The position numbers and the translations under genes are program-made. A stretch of DNA of 64,000 bases from an uncultured Verrucomicrobiae bacterium (GTDB lineage: Bacteria; Verrucomicrobiota; Verrucomicrobiia; Limisphaerales; Palsa-1400), in contig CAVPOM010000007.1 of assembly GCA_963707025.1 (NCBI GenBank), positions 192,001-256,000 of the forward strand. The letters run 5' to 3'. Positions 7,716 to 48,706 of the stretch are shown one piece after another. The notes below the pieces were generated by a model, which did not search any database, had not been told where the DNA came from, and worked only from the letters and a program-made list of their open reading frames with translations. How positions within the stretch are numbered: position 1 is the stretch's first letter; each line of letters begins with the position of its first letter.

Positions 7716-10142
7716 CTAATTGGCGCCGTGCGGGGCCAGGGCCTCGGTGATGGCCTGGTCAATGTCCGGGCCGCGCAGATCGCGCGCCACAATCTTGCCG
7801 TCCGGGCCGATGAGGAAGATGGCCGGGATTCCTTCCACGCCGTAGAGGTCCGGCACGGGGGATTTTTGCCATTCGCCCAGGAAGCCCTGGATCCAGCGCA
7901 GGCCGTTCTTTTTGGCAAAGTCAATGGGCTGGGCGGCCTTCTCATCCACGCTCAGGCTCATCATGGCGAAACGGGGGTCTTTGGCGTGCTTGTCATAGGC
8001 GGCCTTGAGATTGGGCACTTCCGCCACGCACGGGCCGCACCAGGTGGCCCAGAAATCCAGCAAGACGTATTTGCCGCGGAAGTCGGCCAGGCGCAAGGGA
8101 TGGCCGTCGGTGGTCATGGTTTCGAAGAGAGGGGCGGGGTCGCCGACGCGCAGGGCCAGGGCCTGCTGGAGGGCGATGAGGCCCAGATTGAGGCGGGGCT
8201 GATCGCCGGCGGCGATTTGGGCCGGGTCGTACGTAGTATTGACAGTGATGTTGGTGGACAAGGCGGCGAGCTTGCCGCCGCCCAGTTCCGGGGCTTCGCG
8301 CAATTGCACGCGGAGCTGGTATTTGCCGGGCGGGACATCCTCGAAGACGAAGGAGCCGTCGGCTTCGGCCGTGGCGGCGAAGGCGCGCTGGGCGCGCTGC
8401 CAGGCCCTGCCTTGGGCGGACTTCAAGAACTGGCCCATCCACTTTTGCCGGGCGGCCTCATCGTCAAAACTGGGCATCTCGGGATCCGGGACCGAAGCGG
8501 TCAATACGATGGTCTGGCCGGCCTGCCAATTGATTTTTTCGCGGTAACCGGGAACGGTCAGGCGCCCGGCCACCAGCGCGGGCGTGCCTTTTTCCAGTTG
8601 GATGTCCTCGCGGTGGTCGCCATCGCCGGGCGACATCAATTCCGTGCTGGCCGGCAGATAGCCGGGCTGGCGGAATTCCAGCACAAAGGAGGTGACTTTT
8701 GGGTCCACCTCCACCAGGTAATCGCCGGTGGGGCCGGACACTTCCTTTTCAGCGTGGGTCGTGCCCTGGTCGGTGGTGAGATAGACGGTGATGGAGAATT
8801 TCTCGATGGGCGCATGGGTGGCGGCATCGGTGACCCTGCCGTCCACGTCGGTTTTGCCGTTGGCTTTGCGCAGGGTGATGGTTTTTTCCGTGTCATCGGC
8901 CAGGAGGGCCGGCTCGGAGCGCAGATTGTAGCCCTCGGCGGTGATGAGATAGGGATGCTCGCCGGCCGGAGCCGAATCCCACCGAAACCGGCCCTGGCTG
9001 TCGGTGGTGGCACTCCAATCAAATTCAAGCGGATCCAAATTGACGCGGTCCAGTTGCACGCTGGCCCCGGCCACCGGCTGGCCGGTTTCATCCAGCACCC
9101 TGCCCTTGAAGATGTGGCCCGGACTCATGGCCACTTTCAGTTCGGGCATTTGATTGCTGATGGCCAGGGCGAGGGTTTGCGGCTCCAGCCCGCTGGCCTG
9201 GAGGGTGAGCACCAGGTCGCCGGGCAGAAGGTTGGGGATTTGGAACCGGCCGGCGCCGTCGCTTTGCAGGACGCCAGCCGGATTGCGCCACTCATGGTTG
9301 CGGGTGATGACCACCCCGGAGACCGGTTTCCCGGTGTTGTCAACAATAAGCCCCGACACCGTCACCCCATGGCCGATGACCAGGACGGCCGTGCCGGCCA
9401 GAAAATCGGCGGCGGGCAGGCGCGTGACTTCGTCCCCGCCCGCGGCGGAGCCTTCGCAGCCGAAGGTGGCGGGGAGAAAATCGGGCTGGACCACGCGCAA
9501 AACGAGGTTGGAAAAATCCTGGGGGAGATGATTGCACTGCCAGTGGCCATTTTCGTCGGTGCGCTCGTTATGGAAGTTGGGGGCGACGAGAGTCCGTTCG
9601 CGCTCGGCCGGGCTGGCGGGATTGACGCCGGAAAACCGGATGATGGCGCCCGCCACCGGCTGGCCGTCCGAGCTTTTGAGCACGCCGCCGATGCTGGCGG
9701 CTTTCTCCATCCGGGCGGTGTATTCGGCGGGAATGTCCTGGAACTTGTCCTGCCGGGAGGTGGCCCAGGTGATGGTTTTGGCCACAAAACCGTCCTTGGT
9801 GATGGTGATGAGATAGCTGAAATCGTTGGTCGGCGGCTTGGGCATGGCAAAGGAACAACTGCCCGTGCCGTCGGTCACCAGACTGCCTCTGACCCAGGCG
9901 ACGCGGATTTTGACCCCCGGCAGGGGCGCCGCCGTCACGGAATCGAGCACGCGAAAGCGCATGGAGGCGCTGTTGGTTTCGGCGGGGGCAGCGGGGGCGG
10001 CGGGCGTGGCCGGGGCAATCGCGGAGTCTGGCGGGGTCTGGGCCGGGGTCTGGGCCGTGGCGCCGTGGCGCGCCGCCCCGAGAAAGGCCAGGGCCAGGAT
10101 GGCCGCGCGGGCGGAATGGCTCAGGATTTGTTTGGTATGCAT
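7716..10142 (-). CDS. secreted redoxin (TlpA/AhpC-TSA domain) with carboxypeptidase-regulatory-like beta-sandwich repeats
   Basis: Signal peptide, repeated G.V.D..G.PV.GA units, C-terminal LLDFWATWCGPC. Confidence 0.85.
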   Translation of the reverse strand: MHTKQILSHSARAAILALAFLGAARHGATAQTPAQTPPDSAIAPATPAAPAAPAETNSASMRFRVLDSVTAAPLPGVKIRVAWVRGSLVTDGTGSCSFAMPKPPTNDFSYLITITKDGFVAKTITWATSRQDKFQDIPAEYTARMEKAASIGGVLKSSDGQPVAGAIIRFSGVNPASPAERERTLVAPNFHNERTDENGHWQCNHLPQDFSNLVLRVVQPDFLPATFGCEGSAAGGDEVTRLPAADFLAGTAVLVIGHGVTVSGLIVDNTGKPVSGVVITRNHEWRNPAGVLQSDGAGRFQIPNLLPGDLVLTLQASGLEPQTLALAISNQMPELKVAMSPGHIFKGRVLDETGQPVAGASVQLDRVNLDPLEFDWSATTDSQGRFRWDSAPAGEHPYLITAEGYNLRSEPALLADDTEKTITLRKANGKTDVDGRVTDAATHAPIEKFSITVYLTTDQGTTHAEKEVSGPTGDYLVEVDPKVTSFVLEFRQPGYLPASTELMSPGDGDHREDIQLEKGTPALVAGRLTVPGYREKINWQAGQTIVLTASVPDPEMPSFDDEAARQKWMGQFLKSAQGRAWQRAQRAFAATAEADGSFVFEDVPPGKYQLRVQLREAPELGGGKLAALSTNITVNTTYDPAQIAAGDQPRLNLGLIALQQALALRVGDPAPLFETMTTDGHPLRLADFRGKYVLLDFWATWCGPCVAEVPNLKAAYDKHAKDPRFAMMSLSVDEKAAQPIDFAKKNGLRWIQGFLGEWQKSPVPDLYGVEGIPAIFLIGPDGKIVARDLRGPDIDQAITEALAPHGAN

Positions 10143-10436
10143 AGGCGACGCAAGCCTGCTGGTTAATATGCCCGTTTGCCGGAGACTTGCAACCCGGAAA
10201 GGAGCCGGAAATGAGCGGGGAAATTGCCGTGCCGGATTTCCTGACGCGGGCGCAGAGGGGGGGAATTAAAATGCCTTCTTCTGCCTGTGCTTTGCGTGAG
10301 ATGGTTTTTCATGCGGATGGCGGATGGCGGGCGGGACCAGCGGCGCGGGAAAGTTCTGGTGGTTGGCCCACGCCCGCCCGGAACGGACAGGACGAGGTGG
10401 CTGCTCATGGTCAGGGTTGGTCATGGTAAAAATATG

Positions 10437-12394
10437 GTAGAGTAGGCGAAGTGGAAGGAGGCGGATTGAACTGACCGCAGTTGTCAGTCTCGCGCTGCCA
10501 CTTCGCCCCTCATCGAACCGAACGGACGGATTTCCCATATTCGGCTCTCCGAACTCATTCATCGGGCCGCCTTCCACTTCGCCGTGGTCGGCAGTTCATA
10601 GAGTCCATAACGCTGGTGCAACTGCTCGGGAACGTAGTGTTCCCACAGGCTGCGGCGGCAACCGTGTTTGCGCCACAGCCAGCGCCGAAAGCGGTTTTGG
10701 CTGTAGTGTTTCATCCGGTTCATCACCGAGACGCTGTTGCCGTAGTGGAAGTAGCCCGCCCATCCGCGCAAGACTTGGTTGACCTCTTTGACCACCTCCT
10801 GTATCGGACGCCCCTGCGTCCAGTGGTTGAGGATGCCGCCCAGTTTCTCGCGCAGGGCCCCCCGGCTTTTCTGGCTGGGTTGAACGTGCAGGTAGCCGCG
10901 CCCTCCAAAGGACTTGCGCCAGGTCAGGTTGAAGCCCAGGAAGTTGATCCCTTCCTTGCGAATGTTCACAATTCGGGTTTTGACTTCGTTGAGGGTCAGC
11001 CCTTTGGCTCGAAGCCATTTCTTGAGCCGCGCTATCAGCCCTCCGCCGCACCCCGCCGCGCACGCGATGACAAAGTCATCGGCGTAGCGCACCATGCGGG
11101 CTTGGCCGGAGGTTTTCTCGTTCACCCCGTGATCCAGCGGGTTGAGGTAGAGGTTGGCCAGCAGCGGCGAGATGACCCCGCCTTGCGGCGTGCCGCGCCG
11201 GTTGGGGATCACTCGCTTGGTGCCGTCCTGGTCTTCCTCCGCGACCGGGGCGCGCAGCCAGCTCTTGAGGAGCCGCAGCACGCTGCCGTCGCTGACCCGC
11301 CGGGCCACGGCCTTCATCAGTTCCCGGTGCGGAATCGTGTCGAAATATTTCGTCAGGTCCGCGTTGATGATTTCCACGTAGCCTTGCTGCACTGCTTGTT
11401 GGATTTCCGCAATGGCTTGGTGTGCCCGGCGTTTGGGCCGAAAGCCGTAGGAGCGCGGATGAAAGTCCGCCTCCAAGATCGGCATCAGCACCAGATACAC
11501 CGCCGTTTGCACCACCCGGTCCTTGACCGTCGGGATGCCCAACGGCCGTTCCCCTCCGCTGCTCTTGGGAATCATCACCCGCCGCACCGGGCTGGCCCGA
11601 TACGTCTTGGCTTTGAGTTCTGCTTGCAGGCGGTCGAGCCATTGCTGGCGCAGGGCCGGGTCGGCGGTGATGGACTCCATACTCTGTCCGTCCACTCCCG
11701 CGGCCCCGCCGTTGCGCTGTTGCGCTGCCAAGGCGGTTTCGAGCACGTCCTTGCGCAGCAATTCCCCATACAGGCTCCAGAACCGATACTTCGGCTCTGC
11801 TTTGGCTTTCCGATAGAGCGCGATTTGAAGCTGCCGAACTTTCTCCGGGGTTGCTATCCGGGTCGCCCCGGCCATCCCCGCATCCTTCGCTTCGCCTCCA
11901 CGCATTGAGCAAGTGTTCCCCCTTTGCGTTCGCTCGCGCAACTCCCGGCGGAAATCCGCCTGGAGCGCAAACAAGTCCACGCTACTATGAGGAACTCCGA
12001 CTTCTCCGGCAGGGCCGCTCGCCTGACTGGTCTTGCCAGCTTGCGCGGGCGGTTGGGCTGGCCGCCCGCCGCCGGAGTTCTCCCAGCTTACCTTGGTTGA
12101 ACTTCCAGACGTGCCGTCCACGCCGACCCCGCCGGAGCGTTGAGAAGGCTCTGACTGTTGCCCTGCCTCCTCCCTGCGGCCTTCGCCGGTCAAACAGCGG
12201 CTCGGCTTGTCTCCGGTTCTAAACTTATCGAGGCTCATTGGATGTGGTTCATTTTCATTACGGCCCGTCTGTTCATCTCCCTCAGCTTCCAACCCCGCCT
12301 CGCGGCGGCGCTGTTGAGGTCGTGTTCCGTCGTGAACAGCCTAATTCGACGGGCGGGACTTTCACCCGCGTTCCAACCAACTTCACTGGCGCAA
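10437..12394 (-). mobile_element. group II intron (IIB-like, RT without endonuclease domain)
   Basis: 5' TTGCGCCAGTG..; EBS1 hairpin 12185-12201; domain V GAGCCGAATATGGGAAATCCGTCCGTTCGGTTC at 10547-10515; domain VI with bulged A ending ..CTACTCTAC at 10437. Confidence 0.88.
10559..11875 (-). CDS. ltrA: group II intron reverse transcriptase/maturase
   Basis: RPLGIPTVKDRVVQ, SYGFRP, GTPQGGVISPLLANLYL, RYADDF, FLGF, maturase X domain (LRGWAGYF); no HNH tail. Confidence 0.95.
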   Translation of the reverse strand: MAGATRIATPEKVRQLQIALYRKAKAEPKYRFWSLYGELLRKDVLETALAAQQRNGGAAGVDGQSMESITADPALRQQWLDRLQAELKAKTYRASPVRRVMIPKSSGGERPLGIPTVKDRVVQTAVYLVLMPILEADFHPRSYGFRPKRRAHQAIAEIQQAVQQGYVEIINADLTKYFDTIPHRELMKAVARRVSDGSVLRLLKSWLRAPVAEEDQDGTKRVIPNRRGTPQGGVISPLLANLYLNPLDHGVNEKTSGQARMVRYADDFVIACAAGCGGGLIARLKKWLRAKGLTLNEVKTRIVNIRKEGINFLGFNLTWRKSFGGRGYLHVQPSQKSRGALREKLGGILNHWTQGRPIQEVVKEVNQVLRGWAGYFHYGNSVSVMNRMKHYSQNRFRRWLWRKHGCRRSLWEHYVPEQLHQRYGLYELPTTAKWKAAR

Positions 12395-12398
12395 CGTT

Positions 12399-12524
12399 TG
12401 ACCCGGTTTGACCGCCACGGGTTCGATCACATCCCAATGGCTCAGCAACACCTTGCAGGTGAGGGTCTTCCACATTTTTATCCCTCACTTGGCTGGATAG
12501 GCTTGAGTTTGACCAGGTTTGACC
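12399..12524. repeat. decamer tandem repeats TGACC-N5-TGACC (two pairs, 12399-12413 and 12510-12524); inverted pair at 10409-10423
   Basis: GTTTGACCCGGTTTGACCG and GTTTGACCAGGTTTGACCG read directly. Confidence 0.75.
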
Positions 12525-12700: not shown

Positions 12701-13051
12701 TATGGACCACCCTCATAACTCAGGAAAGATTAGCATTTAATTCAAGGTCGTCAACAGAAAAATGCGGATTTTTGCAAGGCCCTCATCATGAGACACTTGG
12801 GCAGAATCATCAAAACACGGAATTACCAATATCAAATACTCGATGGAAAATTCTGGATTTCCGGCCGGGAGTACTACCTAGTGGGTTCTCAGAATTGAAA
12901 ATTGGTTATTGAAAATTGGTCATTGGTAATCTTAAAGCAGGTACTGGGCTGGCAGGAGTTACCCAAAAAAGTGAAATGCCCCCGGAAGCAGCGGTGGGAG
13001 CGGTTCGGGTTTGCCAGTTTTGGGGTTTCGGTGTTCAGTAGTCGGAATGCT

Positions 13052-14359
13052 ATGGCTGTAATCAAACCATTCGCCGCGTTGCGGCCGCAACCGGAGTTGG
13101 CGGACAAAATCTGCGAGTTGCCTTACGATGTCATGTCCTCGGAAGAGGCCCGGGCGATGGCGGCGGGAAATCCGCTCAGCTTTCTGCATGTGAGCAAGCC
13201 GGAAATAGATCTGGGCCCCGATGTGGATGTTCACGACGCGCAAGTGTATGCCAGGGGCCGGGAAAATTTTGACCGGCTCATCGGGCAGGGCGCGCTCCGG
13301 CAGGAGGCCCGGCCCTGCTTCTATCTTTACCGGCAGATCATGGGCCAGCACGCGCAGACGGGCCTGGTCGCCGCCGCCAGTTGCGAAGATTATTTGCGCG
13401 GGGTGATCAAAAAGCACGAGCTGACGCGCCCGGACAAGGAGGAGGACCGGGTCCGGCACATCGAAGCGCTGAGCGCGCAAACCGGCCCGGTTTTCCTGGT
13501 TTATCGCGCGGTGAAGGCCATGGACGAACTGGTGGCGCAGCAGATCACCGAACCGCCGGACATCGATTTCACGGCGCGCGACGGCATCCGGCATACGTCG
13601 TGGACGTTGCGCGAAGGGGCACAGATTGGCTTGGCGCGCCAGACGTTCAGGAACATTCCGTTTCTTTACATCGCCGACGGCCATCATCGCAGCGCGGCGG
13701 CGGCGCGGGTGTGCCAGGCGCGGCGGGGCACGGGGGAGAGCGGTTTTTTTCTGAGCGTGATTTTTCCGGACAATCAACTGCGCATTCTGCCTTACAATCG
13801 CGTCTTGAAAGATTTAAACGGCCTGAGCGCGACGGAGTTGCTGAAGAAACTGGAGGCGGTTTTTGTGGTGTCGCCAGCCCGGCGTCCAGCCAACAGCCGC
13901 GCCACAGCTTTGTTCCCGGAGAACCGCAGCCAGGCGGGCTTTCACCCGGCCTCGGTGGATTTGAAAGGAGGCCCCCCCGGCGTGCCTGCCGGCAAACATC
14001 AGTTGGCGTTGTTCCTGGAAGGCTACTGGCACGGGTTGAGCTTTCGACCGGAGATTTGCGCGGTGGAGGACCCGGCGGAAGGGCTGGATGTGACGTTGCT
14101 GCAAAAGCATGTGCTGGCTCCGATCTTCGGGATTGATGACCCCCGGACGAGCCAGCGGATTAATTTTGTCGGCGGCATCCGGGGGACGGACGAGCTGGAG
14201 AAGCTGGTTGGAAAACAGGAATACGCGTGCGCTTTTTCCCTGTTCCCGACCGGCGTGGAGGATTTGATGAGGATCGCGGACGCGGGGGGCCTCATGCCGC
14301 CGAAAAGCACCTGGTTCGAACCGAAATTGCGCGACGCCATGTTCTGCCACTTGATTTGA
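13052..14359 (+). CDS. DUF1015 family protein
   Basis: PYDVMS, KKHELTR, YIADGHHR, MPPKSTWFEPKLR. Confidence 0.9.
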   Translation: MAVIKPFAALRPQPELADKICELPYDVMSSEEARAMAAGNPLSFLHVSKPEIDLGPDVDVHDAQVYARGRENFDRLIGQGALRQEARPCFYLYRQIMGQHAQTGLVAAASCEDYLRGVIKKHELTRPDKEEDRVRHIEALSAQTGPVFLVYRAVKAMDELVAQQITEPPDIDFTARDGIRHTSWTLREGAQIGLARQTFRNIPFLYIADGHHRSAAAARVCQARRGTGESGFFLSVIFPDNQLRILPYNRVLKDLNGLSATELLKKLEAVFVVSPARRPANSRATALFPENRSQAGFHPASVDLKGGPPGVPAGKHQLALFLEGYWHGLSFRPEICAVEDPAEGLDVTLLQKHVLAPIFGIDDPRTSQRINFVGGIRGTDELEKLVGKQEYACAFSLFPTGVEDLMRIADAGGLMPPKSTWFEPKLRDAMFCHLI

Positions 14360-48631: not shown

Positions 48632-48706
48632 TGGTAGCGCGTACGGGAATCGCACCCGTCTTTCAGCCTTGAGAGGGCCGTGTCCTAACTGATAGACGAA
48701 CGCGCC
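48632..48706 (-). tRNA. tRNA-Glu (anticodon CTC)
   Basis: GGCGCGT..ACGCGCT acceptor stem plus ACCA; anticodon arm CGGCC-CTCTCAA-GGCTG; promoter TTGACA-17-TACGTT at 48747-48719. Confidence 0.93.

Follow-up and report, generated by a model that had tools for sequence, protein, structure and literature searches.

Putative retrohoming of a IIB-like group II intron into dispersed decamer arrays of an uncultured Verrucomicrobiae bacterium

A 2015 review recognizes three target specificities among bacterial group II introns, namely homing sites, terminators and attC (PMC4424553). Class IIC introns recognize a stem-loop and lack the second exon-binding site, EBS2 (PMC4424553, PMC3753933). In class F introns both exon-binding sites, EBS1 and EBS2, lie in domain Id, and the pairing of EBS2 with the intron-binding site IBS2 of the 5' exon is thought to serve homing and not splicing (PMC3753933). 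In one of these, the IIF intron Ge.ur.I1-1 of Geobacter uraniireducens, the IBS1 motif recurs 9 and 19 nucleotides (nt) upstream and causes alternative 5' splicing in vitro (PMC3753933, Nagy et al. 2013). The intron RmInt1 is reported to insert into single-stranded DNA at the replication fork (PMC1802570, PMC8914252), and other repeats have been described as providing 'A perpetual homing site' for introns (review PMC4424553). Here we describe a group II intron from an uncultured Verrucomicrobiae bacterium that occupies a short tandem array with a period of 10 bp. It lies in a stretch of 64,000 nt (the window, C7:192001-256000) of a 6.96-Mb assembly in 18 contigs (G000).

An intron at the edge of a decamer array

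It is highly likely that this element is an active IIB-like intron, lacking an endonuclease (En-minus), that retrohomes by RNA-DNA pairing into a dispersed, non-coding element built of 10-bp tandem repeats. What the sequences show directly is the anatomy of the intron, the number of its near-identical copies and where they are inserted, the guide pairings together with their covariation, the sites left empty and, genome by genome, the agreement of the guides with the repeat word.

The word GGTCAAAC occurs at four minus-strand positions (12396-12403, 12406-12413, 12507-12514 and 12517-12524), which form the two period-10 doublets that had been claimed originally, and the intron itself contains the complement at 12188-12195. 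Six matches to the word are present in the window as a whole, compared with 2.16 expected. The wider pattern GGTCA-N5-GGTCA is found three times in the 64 kb, at 10409-10423 on the plus strand and at 12399-12413 and 12510-12524 on the minus strand; 0.07 occurrences are expected, and none of 100 shuffles reached three. Across the genome the doublet GGTCAAAC-NN-GGTCAAAC is present 26 times and the reversed control pattern not once; the decamer is dispersed, as the original proposal requires.

The repeated element, dispersed and intergenic, has a regular architecture: (GGTCAAACCN)n, an A/T-rich spacer of 12-13 nt and an inverted TTGACC. Individual arrays contain two to six units, then C-A-T/C, the A/T-rich spacer and one or two inverted units. 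An inverted TGACC or TTGAC lies within +5 to +45 after 37 of the 53 arrays, mostly at +13 to +15, compared with 7.3% of random intergenic 40-nt windows, and the dyad is thus a fixed part of the array element. The original prediction had placed the intron at the center of this dyad. The dyad is real, and the central position is not: insertion takes place where the last direct unit meets the spacer, at the left edge of the latter and not in its middle.

Sixteen full copies of the intron are present in the genome and differ at only 7 of 1959 alignment columns. Seven copies, this one included, are 1959 nt long and have an intact open reading frame (ORF). GTCAAAC directly precedes 15 of the 16, and 14 lie in (GGTCAAACCN)n arrays, which favors the original interpretation; of the remaining two, one follows GCCAAAU in a (AATCAAGCCA)n array and the other a lone GTCAAAC. 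Sites of the form AAAC-N3-GTCAAAC are occupied in 12 of 46 cases, compared with 1 of ~1384 GTCAAAC sites that lack AAAN at -14 to -11.

Comparison of the 16 copies places the 5' splice site between 12396 and 12395, so that the G at 12395 is the first base of the intron. This corrects the pairing between a domain I hairpin and the end of the 5' exon that had been noted earlier. The complementarity holds, and EBS1 and IBS1 form seven of seven pairs without G-U (Table 1).

That the element is a group II intron is evident from its domains V and VI, domain I, reverse transcriptase (RT)/maturase and EBS1-IBS1 pairing taken together. Domains V and VI match Rfam RF00029 at 10549-10437 (42.6 bits, threshold 40), and the alignment, GAGCCG...CGGUUC and then ..CCUACUCUAC, contains the catalytic AGC triad and the bulged A of the domain VI consensus; the branch A is presumed to be at 10443. 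Domain I is structured and carries the EBS1 loop at RF02005 model positions ~145-165, a placement that we take from the anatomy of IIB introns together with the covariation of the guides. Among relatives the stem of the hairpin GCCG-CUGUUUGAC-CGGC is kept and the bases of its loop vary. Domain Id contains both guides, EBS1 as well as EBS2, and IBS2 is upstream of IBS1, an IIB-like arrangement that agrees with class F (core group Ge.ur.I1, So.us.I2 and Pe.th.I2) and is not specific to it.

With TIGR04416 the encoded protein reaches 382 bits, above the cut-off of 300. Its sole Pfam matches are RVT_1 and GIIM, the latter at residues 351-416 of 448, and since the protein stops 32 residues past the maturase match, it has no D/En (HNH) endonuclease domain. 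Among solved structures (PDB), which cover too few classes to decide the matter, the best matches of the RT are IIC RTs. The closest RT relatives on plasmids (Bradyrhizobium, Rhizobium, Nitrobacter; 45-47% identity) belong to introns with an RF02003 domain I, not RF02005, and class assignment by way of these relatives failed. In lacking an endonuclease the intron agrees with the En-minus lineages (classes A, C, D, E, F and g1-g4).

Table 1. Positions of the intron, its target and related features. Coordinates without a contig prefix refer to the window; those with one refer to the assembly named in the row.
Feature	Position	Strand	Remarks
Group II intron	10437..12395	-	1959 nt, GUUGCG...CUCUAC; ends set by comparing 16 genomic copies
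Domain I core	12117..12362	-	Rfam RF02005 (group-II-D1D4-6; domain I-IV core), 62.2 bits, threshold 49, E 1.7e-16
EBS2 core GUUU	12221..12224	-	domain I internal loop CGAUAA-GUUU-AGAACC; covaries with exon -14 to -11
Domain I hairpin GCCG-CUGUUUGAC-CGGC	12185..12201	-	aligns with RF02005 stem-loop
EBS1 GUUUGAC	12195-12189	-	inside the domain I hairpin; pairs with IBS1
RT/maturase, 448 aa	10559..11905	-	in domain IV; YADD present; ORF intact in this copy
Domain V, 33 nt	10515..10547	-	AGC triad; RF00029 alignment
Domain VI	10437..10511	-	RF00029 alignment ...CCUACUCUAC
IBS1 GUCAAAC	12396..12402	-	final 7 nt of 5' exon; 7/7 pairs with EBS1, no G-U
IBS2 AAAC	12406..12409	-	preceding decamer unit (-14 to -11); 4/4 pairs with EBS2
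Target array	12396..12413	-	units GGTCAAACCG GGTCAAAC; intron after second unit
93-nt module between doublets	12414..12506	-	inverted repeat GTGAGGG..CCCTCAC at 12459-12488
Second doublet	12507..12524	-	unoccupied; GGTCAAACCT GGTCAAAC then T; perfect IBS2 and IBS1
3' exon start	10409..10436	-	C(+1), A/T-rich spacer CATATTTTTACCA, two inverted TGACC (10423-10419, 10413-10409)
Downstream gene	7716..10142	-	CarboxypepD_reg and thioredoxin-like domains; start 295 nt past 3' splice site
Divergent gene	12902..14359	+	bounds the intergenic region; crude gene call
Other composite loci (G000)	C7:414045-414181, C7:461946-462074, C13:76137-76264, C18:613632-613759		doublet-module-doublet
Copies with G5 run (G000)	C3:117502, C3:12815, C4:746014, C4:333216, C5:2112, C7:377017, C7:414182, C13:76265, C18:747041		
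ORF-less derivatives	G003:C48:6197-6887 (L022); G004:C248 (L006); G020:C4:364572-365195 (L021)		
(GTGAAAYYAG)n examples (G000)	C3:181241-181297, C4:60919-60974, C10:197563-197628		

Match of the guides to the repeat words

Relatives of the intron were compared in 7 further genomes and 31 metagenome contigs. The first 420 nt of the intron are matched in 11 of 31 genomes of the family, and the relatives in these other genomes are 87-93% identical at the DNA level, some of them without an ORF. They too insert in decamer arrays, as predicted, and the words of these arrays are other ones; both guides differ so as to match. In G019 EBS1 GUUUGAU and EBS2 GUUU face a 5' exon ending in ..AAAC UGA AUCAAAC, and in G014 EBS1 is GUUUGAU or GGUUGAU and EBS2 is CUUU opposite ..AAAG UGA AUCAAAC. 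The guides GUGUGAC and GUGC of G020 stand next to (AGTCGCACCN)n, and GUUGGAU and GUUU of G045 next to (AATCAAACCA)n. The G003 intron (CCAUGAU, GCUU) adjoins (AATCAAGCCA)n with just five of seven IBS1 pairs, and a metagenome-assembled genome (L051) has the guides of the window intron after GGTCAAACCA GGTCAAAC.

Every genome is rich in the word of its own intron. GCAC-N3-GTCGCAC occurs 66 times in G020 and at most seven times in each of four other genomes searched; for AAAG-N3-ATCAAAC the counts are 29 in G014 and 19 in G019. The decamer doublet of the window itself was found in 6 of the 24 other family genomes searched (31 in the set), including G002 and G023. Because no intron was found in either of these two genomes, in which doublet arrays are present, the arrays do not depend on the intron.

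Metagenome contigs scanned with a 29-nt motif of domain I gave matches on at least 121 contigs, from which 80 loci were taken, 31 of them complete from -20 to +220. Among the matches listed, environmental alleles include CUUUGAU and CUUU on AAAG..AUCAAAG, CCUUGAU and GCUU on AAGC..AUCAAGG, CUUCGCU and UUCG on UGAA..AGCGAAG, and EBS1 ACUCGAA on UUCGAGU. A hybrid array (L167), ..CUCGCACC UAAUCAAAC, is matched by a correspondingly mixed pair, EBS2 GUGC and EBS1 GUUUGAU. A period-10 repeat is present in 30 of the 51 distinct environmental 5' exons among these matches, compared with 2.5% of random genome positions. In contigs from a wetland RNA library the differences from the window intron near domain I cluster in EBS1 (12189-12195) and EBS2 (12221-12224), with further differences elsewhere in the intron, and the 5' flank ..CCAATCAAGGCCAATTAAGG of one such contig pairs with its variant EBS1 CCUUAAU.

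The covariation of guides and exon was examined in an alignment of 28 distinct rows (A1) and in a combined alignment (A2) of 61 sequences in 56 distinct rows, the environmental rows coming from the matches listed. Pairing is possible in 96% of the cells of A1, compared with 88.6% in shuffles, and in 94.6% of the cells of A2, compared with 79.1%. Changes on both sides are seen in A2 for 13 of 15 pairs, including all seven of IBS1-EBS1 and all four of IBS2-EBS2; the seven EBS1-IBS1 pairs, all compensatory, are formed in 95.4% of cells. The observed values were reached by none of 500 shuffles, and slid controls pair in at most 45.5% of cells. EBS1 therefore covaries with the repeat word as the original prediction would have it, and so does EBS2, a second guide that it had overlooked.

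Two more distant relatives, L039 and L050 (66% and 63% RT identity), keep the EBS1 and EBS2 pairings at sites that are not recognized as arrays; in L039, which is single-copy in its genome, 6 bp form at the place of EBS2. The evidence of homing into arrays thus extends no further than the sublineage that has the 29-nt domain I motif.

Some derivatives in decamer arrays have lost domain IV and with it the ORF, leaving ~0.55-0.7 kb (Table 1). Joints of this type, 10456>12094 and 10552>12070, were also found in run X15, an RNA library in which the presence of a contig is no proof of transcription. The ORF-less derivatives are presumably mobilized in trans. In two metagenome contigs (L121 and L162) a copy follows another member of this intron family head-to-tail, at distances of 0 and 12 nt from the 3' end of the latter.

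Mechanism and alternatives

How might the intron reach its arrays? The excised intron, as a ribonucleoprotein, would reverse-splice into the strand that bears (GGTCAAACCN)n. EBS1 (GUUUGAC) would pair with GUCAAAC of one unit and so set the insertion point right after that unit; the AAAC bound by EBS2 (GUUU) would belong to the preceding unit, one helical turn further upstream. Since the two guides read adjacent units, two successive units make up one full homing site. The first base of the 3' exon is a pyrimidine, and an EBS3 pairing may take place there. The arrays are many, intergenic and upstream of unrelated genes, and they thus offer dozens of places where insertion does no harm. Both guides would mutate to follow the repeat word, which varies from genome to genome and from array to array. 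Such a cycle of retrohoming would presumably include priming at the replication fork, splicing from a 5' leader transcript, and mobilization in trans of copies that have no ORF or a frameshifted one. Splicing, lariat formation and retrohoming activity are suggested indirectly by the 16 near-identical copies at distinct loci.

Several points weigh against this proposal. Thirty of the perfect sites in this genome contain no intron, among them the upstream doublet in the window with its perfect IBS2 and IBS1, and base pairing is therefore not the sole determinant of insertion. Imperfect sites are used as well: in this genome the copy at C4:333216 follows GCCAAAU and that at C11:46161 has no IBS2, and elsewhere the G003 copy L022 pairs at five of seven positions and G014 copies have a G-G mismatch. 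The IBS2 pairing is just 4 bp and lies 3 nt from IBS1, and EBS2-IBS2 is dispensable for self-splicing in vitro in introns of classes IIE and IIF (PMC3753933). The aligned sequences share ancestry, and compensatory cells overcount independent events. Nine of the 16 copies have a run of five G in place of six (G5 for G6, alignment column 1533) that ends the RT ORF early, at residue 393; either these copies are a real variant or subfamily, presumably mobilized in trans, or the short run is a homopolymer assembly error. No contig bridging the empty allele or the ligated exon junction of the locus was found among metagenome contigs, those of the X15 RNA library included.

One alternative is that the primary determinant of insertion is, as in class C introns, a DNA hairpin or dyad (GGTCAA...TTGACC), or else a protein or stalled fork at the array, and that EBS1 merely fine-tunes the position. 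The inverted TGACC is at +13 to +15 at all 14 occupied array sites as well as after 37 of the 53 arrays, the intron usually follows the last unit and adjoins the spacer, and the RT has its closest solved structures among IIC enzymes. In the window the doublet at 12507-12524 is empty despite perfect pairing, and it lacks the CAT spacer and the dyad. However, the single-stranded DNA of 11 empty sites folds weakly (-1.9 to -7.6 kcal/mol, mean z -1.8), the site falls within or before the hairpin, and a hairpin would bury IBS1 in its stem. Relatives insert in arrays and in non-array sites that have no dyad and keep the pairing, EBS2 is present, unlike in class C, and covariation across 11 pairs would not be expected if the guides were secondary. 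We consider it unlikely, therefore, that structure or a bound protein leads and pairing follows.

The copies might instead have spread by recombination or duplication of intron-filled repeat elements and not by repeated retrohoming. Flank families do share 50-330 nt, and there is one pair with an 800-nt upstream stretch at 99.9% identity and another with 157 nt downstream at 90%. Yet adjoining flanks are only 77-92% alike over 50-330 nt, compared with 7 of 1959 variable columns in the introns, and a different gene stands beside every copy, which argues for separate insertions and not duplications. The grouping of copies by upstream flank does not coincide with that by downstream flank, and the same families have empty members, all of which makes spread by duplication very improbable. 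Still less credible is the idea that the intron makes or carries the decamers, by co-mobilization of the 5' exon or as an insertion footprint, so that the repeats did not pre-exist. It draws on the repeat that always adjoins the 5' end of the intron and on the identity between copies that reaches 18-20 nt into the 5' flank. It is contradicted by about 30 arrays of the same architecture without an intron, by the arrays of G002 and G023, by array lengths and words that vary independently of the intron, and by an intron boundary that coincides with the ends of the ribozyme.

Retrohoming guided by two pairings may be part of a larger pattern, in which the arrays and the two guides are in running co-evolution. 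If that is the case, the arrays would be promoter-proximal elements that evolve fast, to the point that orthologous loci of sister species differ in their word, and the lineage would persist through the retuning of its two-part guide of 11 nt, with which a single word is read at two places one helical turn apart. Were the arrays transcribed as leaders, their repeated IBS motifs would permit register-shifted 5' splice sites, as for Ge.ur.I1-1 in vitro, and such shifts could change the length of the leader or array and perhaps the expression of the downstream gene. This extension is doubtful at present; if true, it would amount to a natural series of self-retargeting gene-targeting elements with a regulatory side effect.

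Genomic setting and comparison with known systems

Judged by crude gene calls of our own, the arrays lie almost without exception between genes. The next downstream gene is co-oriented at 13 of 15 occupied and 16 of 21 empty sites and usually begins 90-480 nt away. The arrays do not mark a regulon: the 27 downstream genes are heterogeneous (L21, PurM-like, PrmC, Dus, HypF, ThiF, several glycosidases, a kinase and others). A scan of the intergenic region for promoters and terminators found one promoter-like site, compared with 0.5 expected. GC skew was used to look for an insertion bias toward the lagging-strand template, as in En-minus lineages; it is noisy in this genome, for which no origin is known. 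Of the occupied sites 11 of 16, and of the empty ones 7 of 24, have a positive skew on the target strand. Elsewhere in the window, a tRNA gene lies at 48635-48706 on the minus strand (Rfam RF00005, 51.3 bits).

The original prediction held that the dyad would be present without the intron. Empty paralogous sites do keep it (for example at C12:24422 and C15:60776), and no exact intron-less allele of this locus was found in sister species, where the upstream regions are rearranged mosaics. Empty arrays, with other words or the same one, are present in the sister species G001 and G004 and absent from G003. Upstream of the orthologous gene each of the three (L097 in G003, L099 in G001, L101 in G004) has a different mosaic of short tandem repeats, made up of the hexamers GATTAN, CGGATTT, TTCCACCTAA and decamer arrays, and the elements thus turn over very fast.

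A doublet-module-doublet arrangement, whose module contains the 7-bp inverted repeat GTGAGGG-N16-CCCTCAC, is present at five loci (Table 1) and holds an intron in the second doublet only, at three of the five. Many other array families with units of 9-10 nt are present in this genome. Arrays of (AATCAAGCCT)n have the same upstream module and T-rich tail as those of (GGTCAAACCN)n. Another dispersed decamer family, (GTGAAAYYAG)4-7, follows GGCCCCCC..GGGGCC..GGAA and numbers at least 28 arrays with its two commonest words. More than 120 nt of identical sequence surround (CCCAATWACG)2 at 17 or more loci of this genome (for example C1:28595, C3:48458, C4:17244 and C4:211939), probably as part of a high-copy insertion sequence. 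The family GTCAAAGGGGTCAAAC-CATATATTTGC.. (C6:59647, C12:102037, C12:99636, C16:109379 and C18:669027, and G019:C1:1777810, L026) looks like the end of another mobile element, and at L026 an 87-nt fragment of the intron 5' end adjoins a copy of it.

Taken together, the original interpretation of the locus was largely supported. Its analogy with class C introns fits in that both are En-minus and find many harmless non-coding landing sites (terminators and attC in class C), and the best solved-structure matches of the RT are of this class. As a mechanism the analogy fails. Insertion in class C follows directly on a stem-loop; in the present case no hairpin precedes the site, and the 5' exon is an array of direct repeats that folds weakly. 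EBS2-IBS2 pairing, absent from class C, is present here, with all four pairs compensatory. IBS1 pairing extends over 7 bp, and the IBS1 of IIC introns is short.

Genomic proliferation is also known from other group II introns. Those of Thermosynechococcus elongatus (the work of Mohr et al. in 2010) and the nested introns of Methanosarcina acetivorans are said to have multiplied in their genomes, with ORF-less copies presumably mobilized in trans. Their targets are single diverged sites or other introns and are not known to include short tandem arrays. The nearest printed precedent that we found is Ge.ur.I1-1, which likewise has EBS1 and EBS2 in domain Id and an IBS1 motif that recurs upstream. 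It differs in that the case concerns alternative splicing of one intron in vitro; in the text of the paper (PMC3753933) the word 'repeat' does not occur, and no dispersed array family, multi-copy homing or covariation of guide and word is described. Searches of the open-access literature turned up no paper in which homing into short tandem arrays is described for a group II intron.

The lineage is of interest as a distinct use of ordinary homing, in which EBS1 and EBS2 fall on successive units of a periodic 10-bp repeat; this gives it dozens of neutral places to land in each genome and makes retargeting simple. It provides a natural series of at least 15 EBS1 and at least 9 EBS2 alleles with their cognate targets, useful in the design of targetrons and in working out the rules by which En-minus IIB-like introns choose their targets. 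Splicing in related classes can do without the EBS2-IBS2 pairing, and the lineage offers evidence of an in-vivo type that selection acts on this pairing, presumably because homing needs it. It also draws attention to an undescribed family of decamer arrays that stand upstream of genes in Verrucomicrobiota of soil and peat.

A close functional parallel is RmInt1 of Sinorhizobium meliloti, whose intron-encoded protein likewise lacks an endonuclease, which chooses its target through EBS/IBS pairing and which proliferates by homing into a multi-copy, dispensable sequence (ISRm2011-2). The rhizobial plasmid introns with 45-47% RT identity have an RF02003 domain I compared with RF02005 here. The target of RmInt1 is one site in an insertion sequence, whereas in the present case a non-coding mosaic element supplies a tandem repeat of 10 bp, two successive units of which are read by the two guides. 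The mechanism is thus ordinary En-minus homing guided by EBS/IBS pairing, as in RmInt1; what is new is the class of target and the periodic reading of two units.

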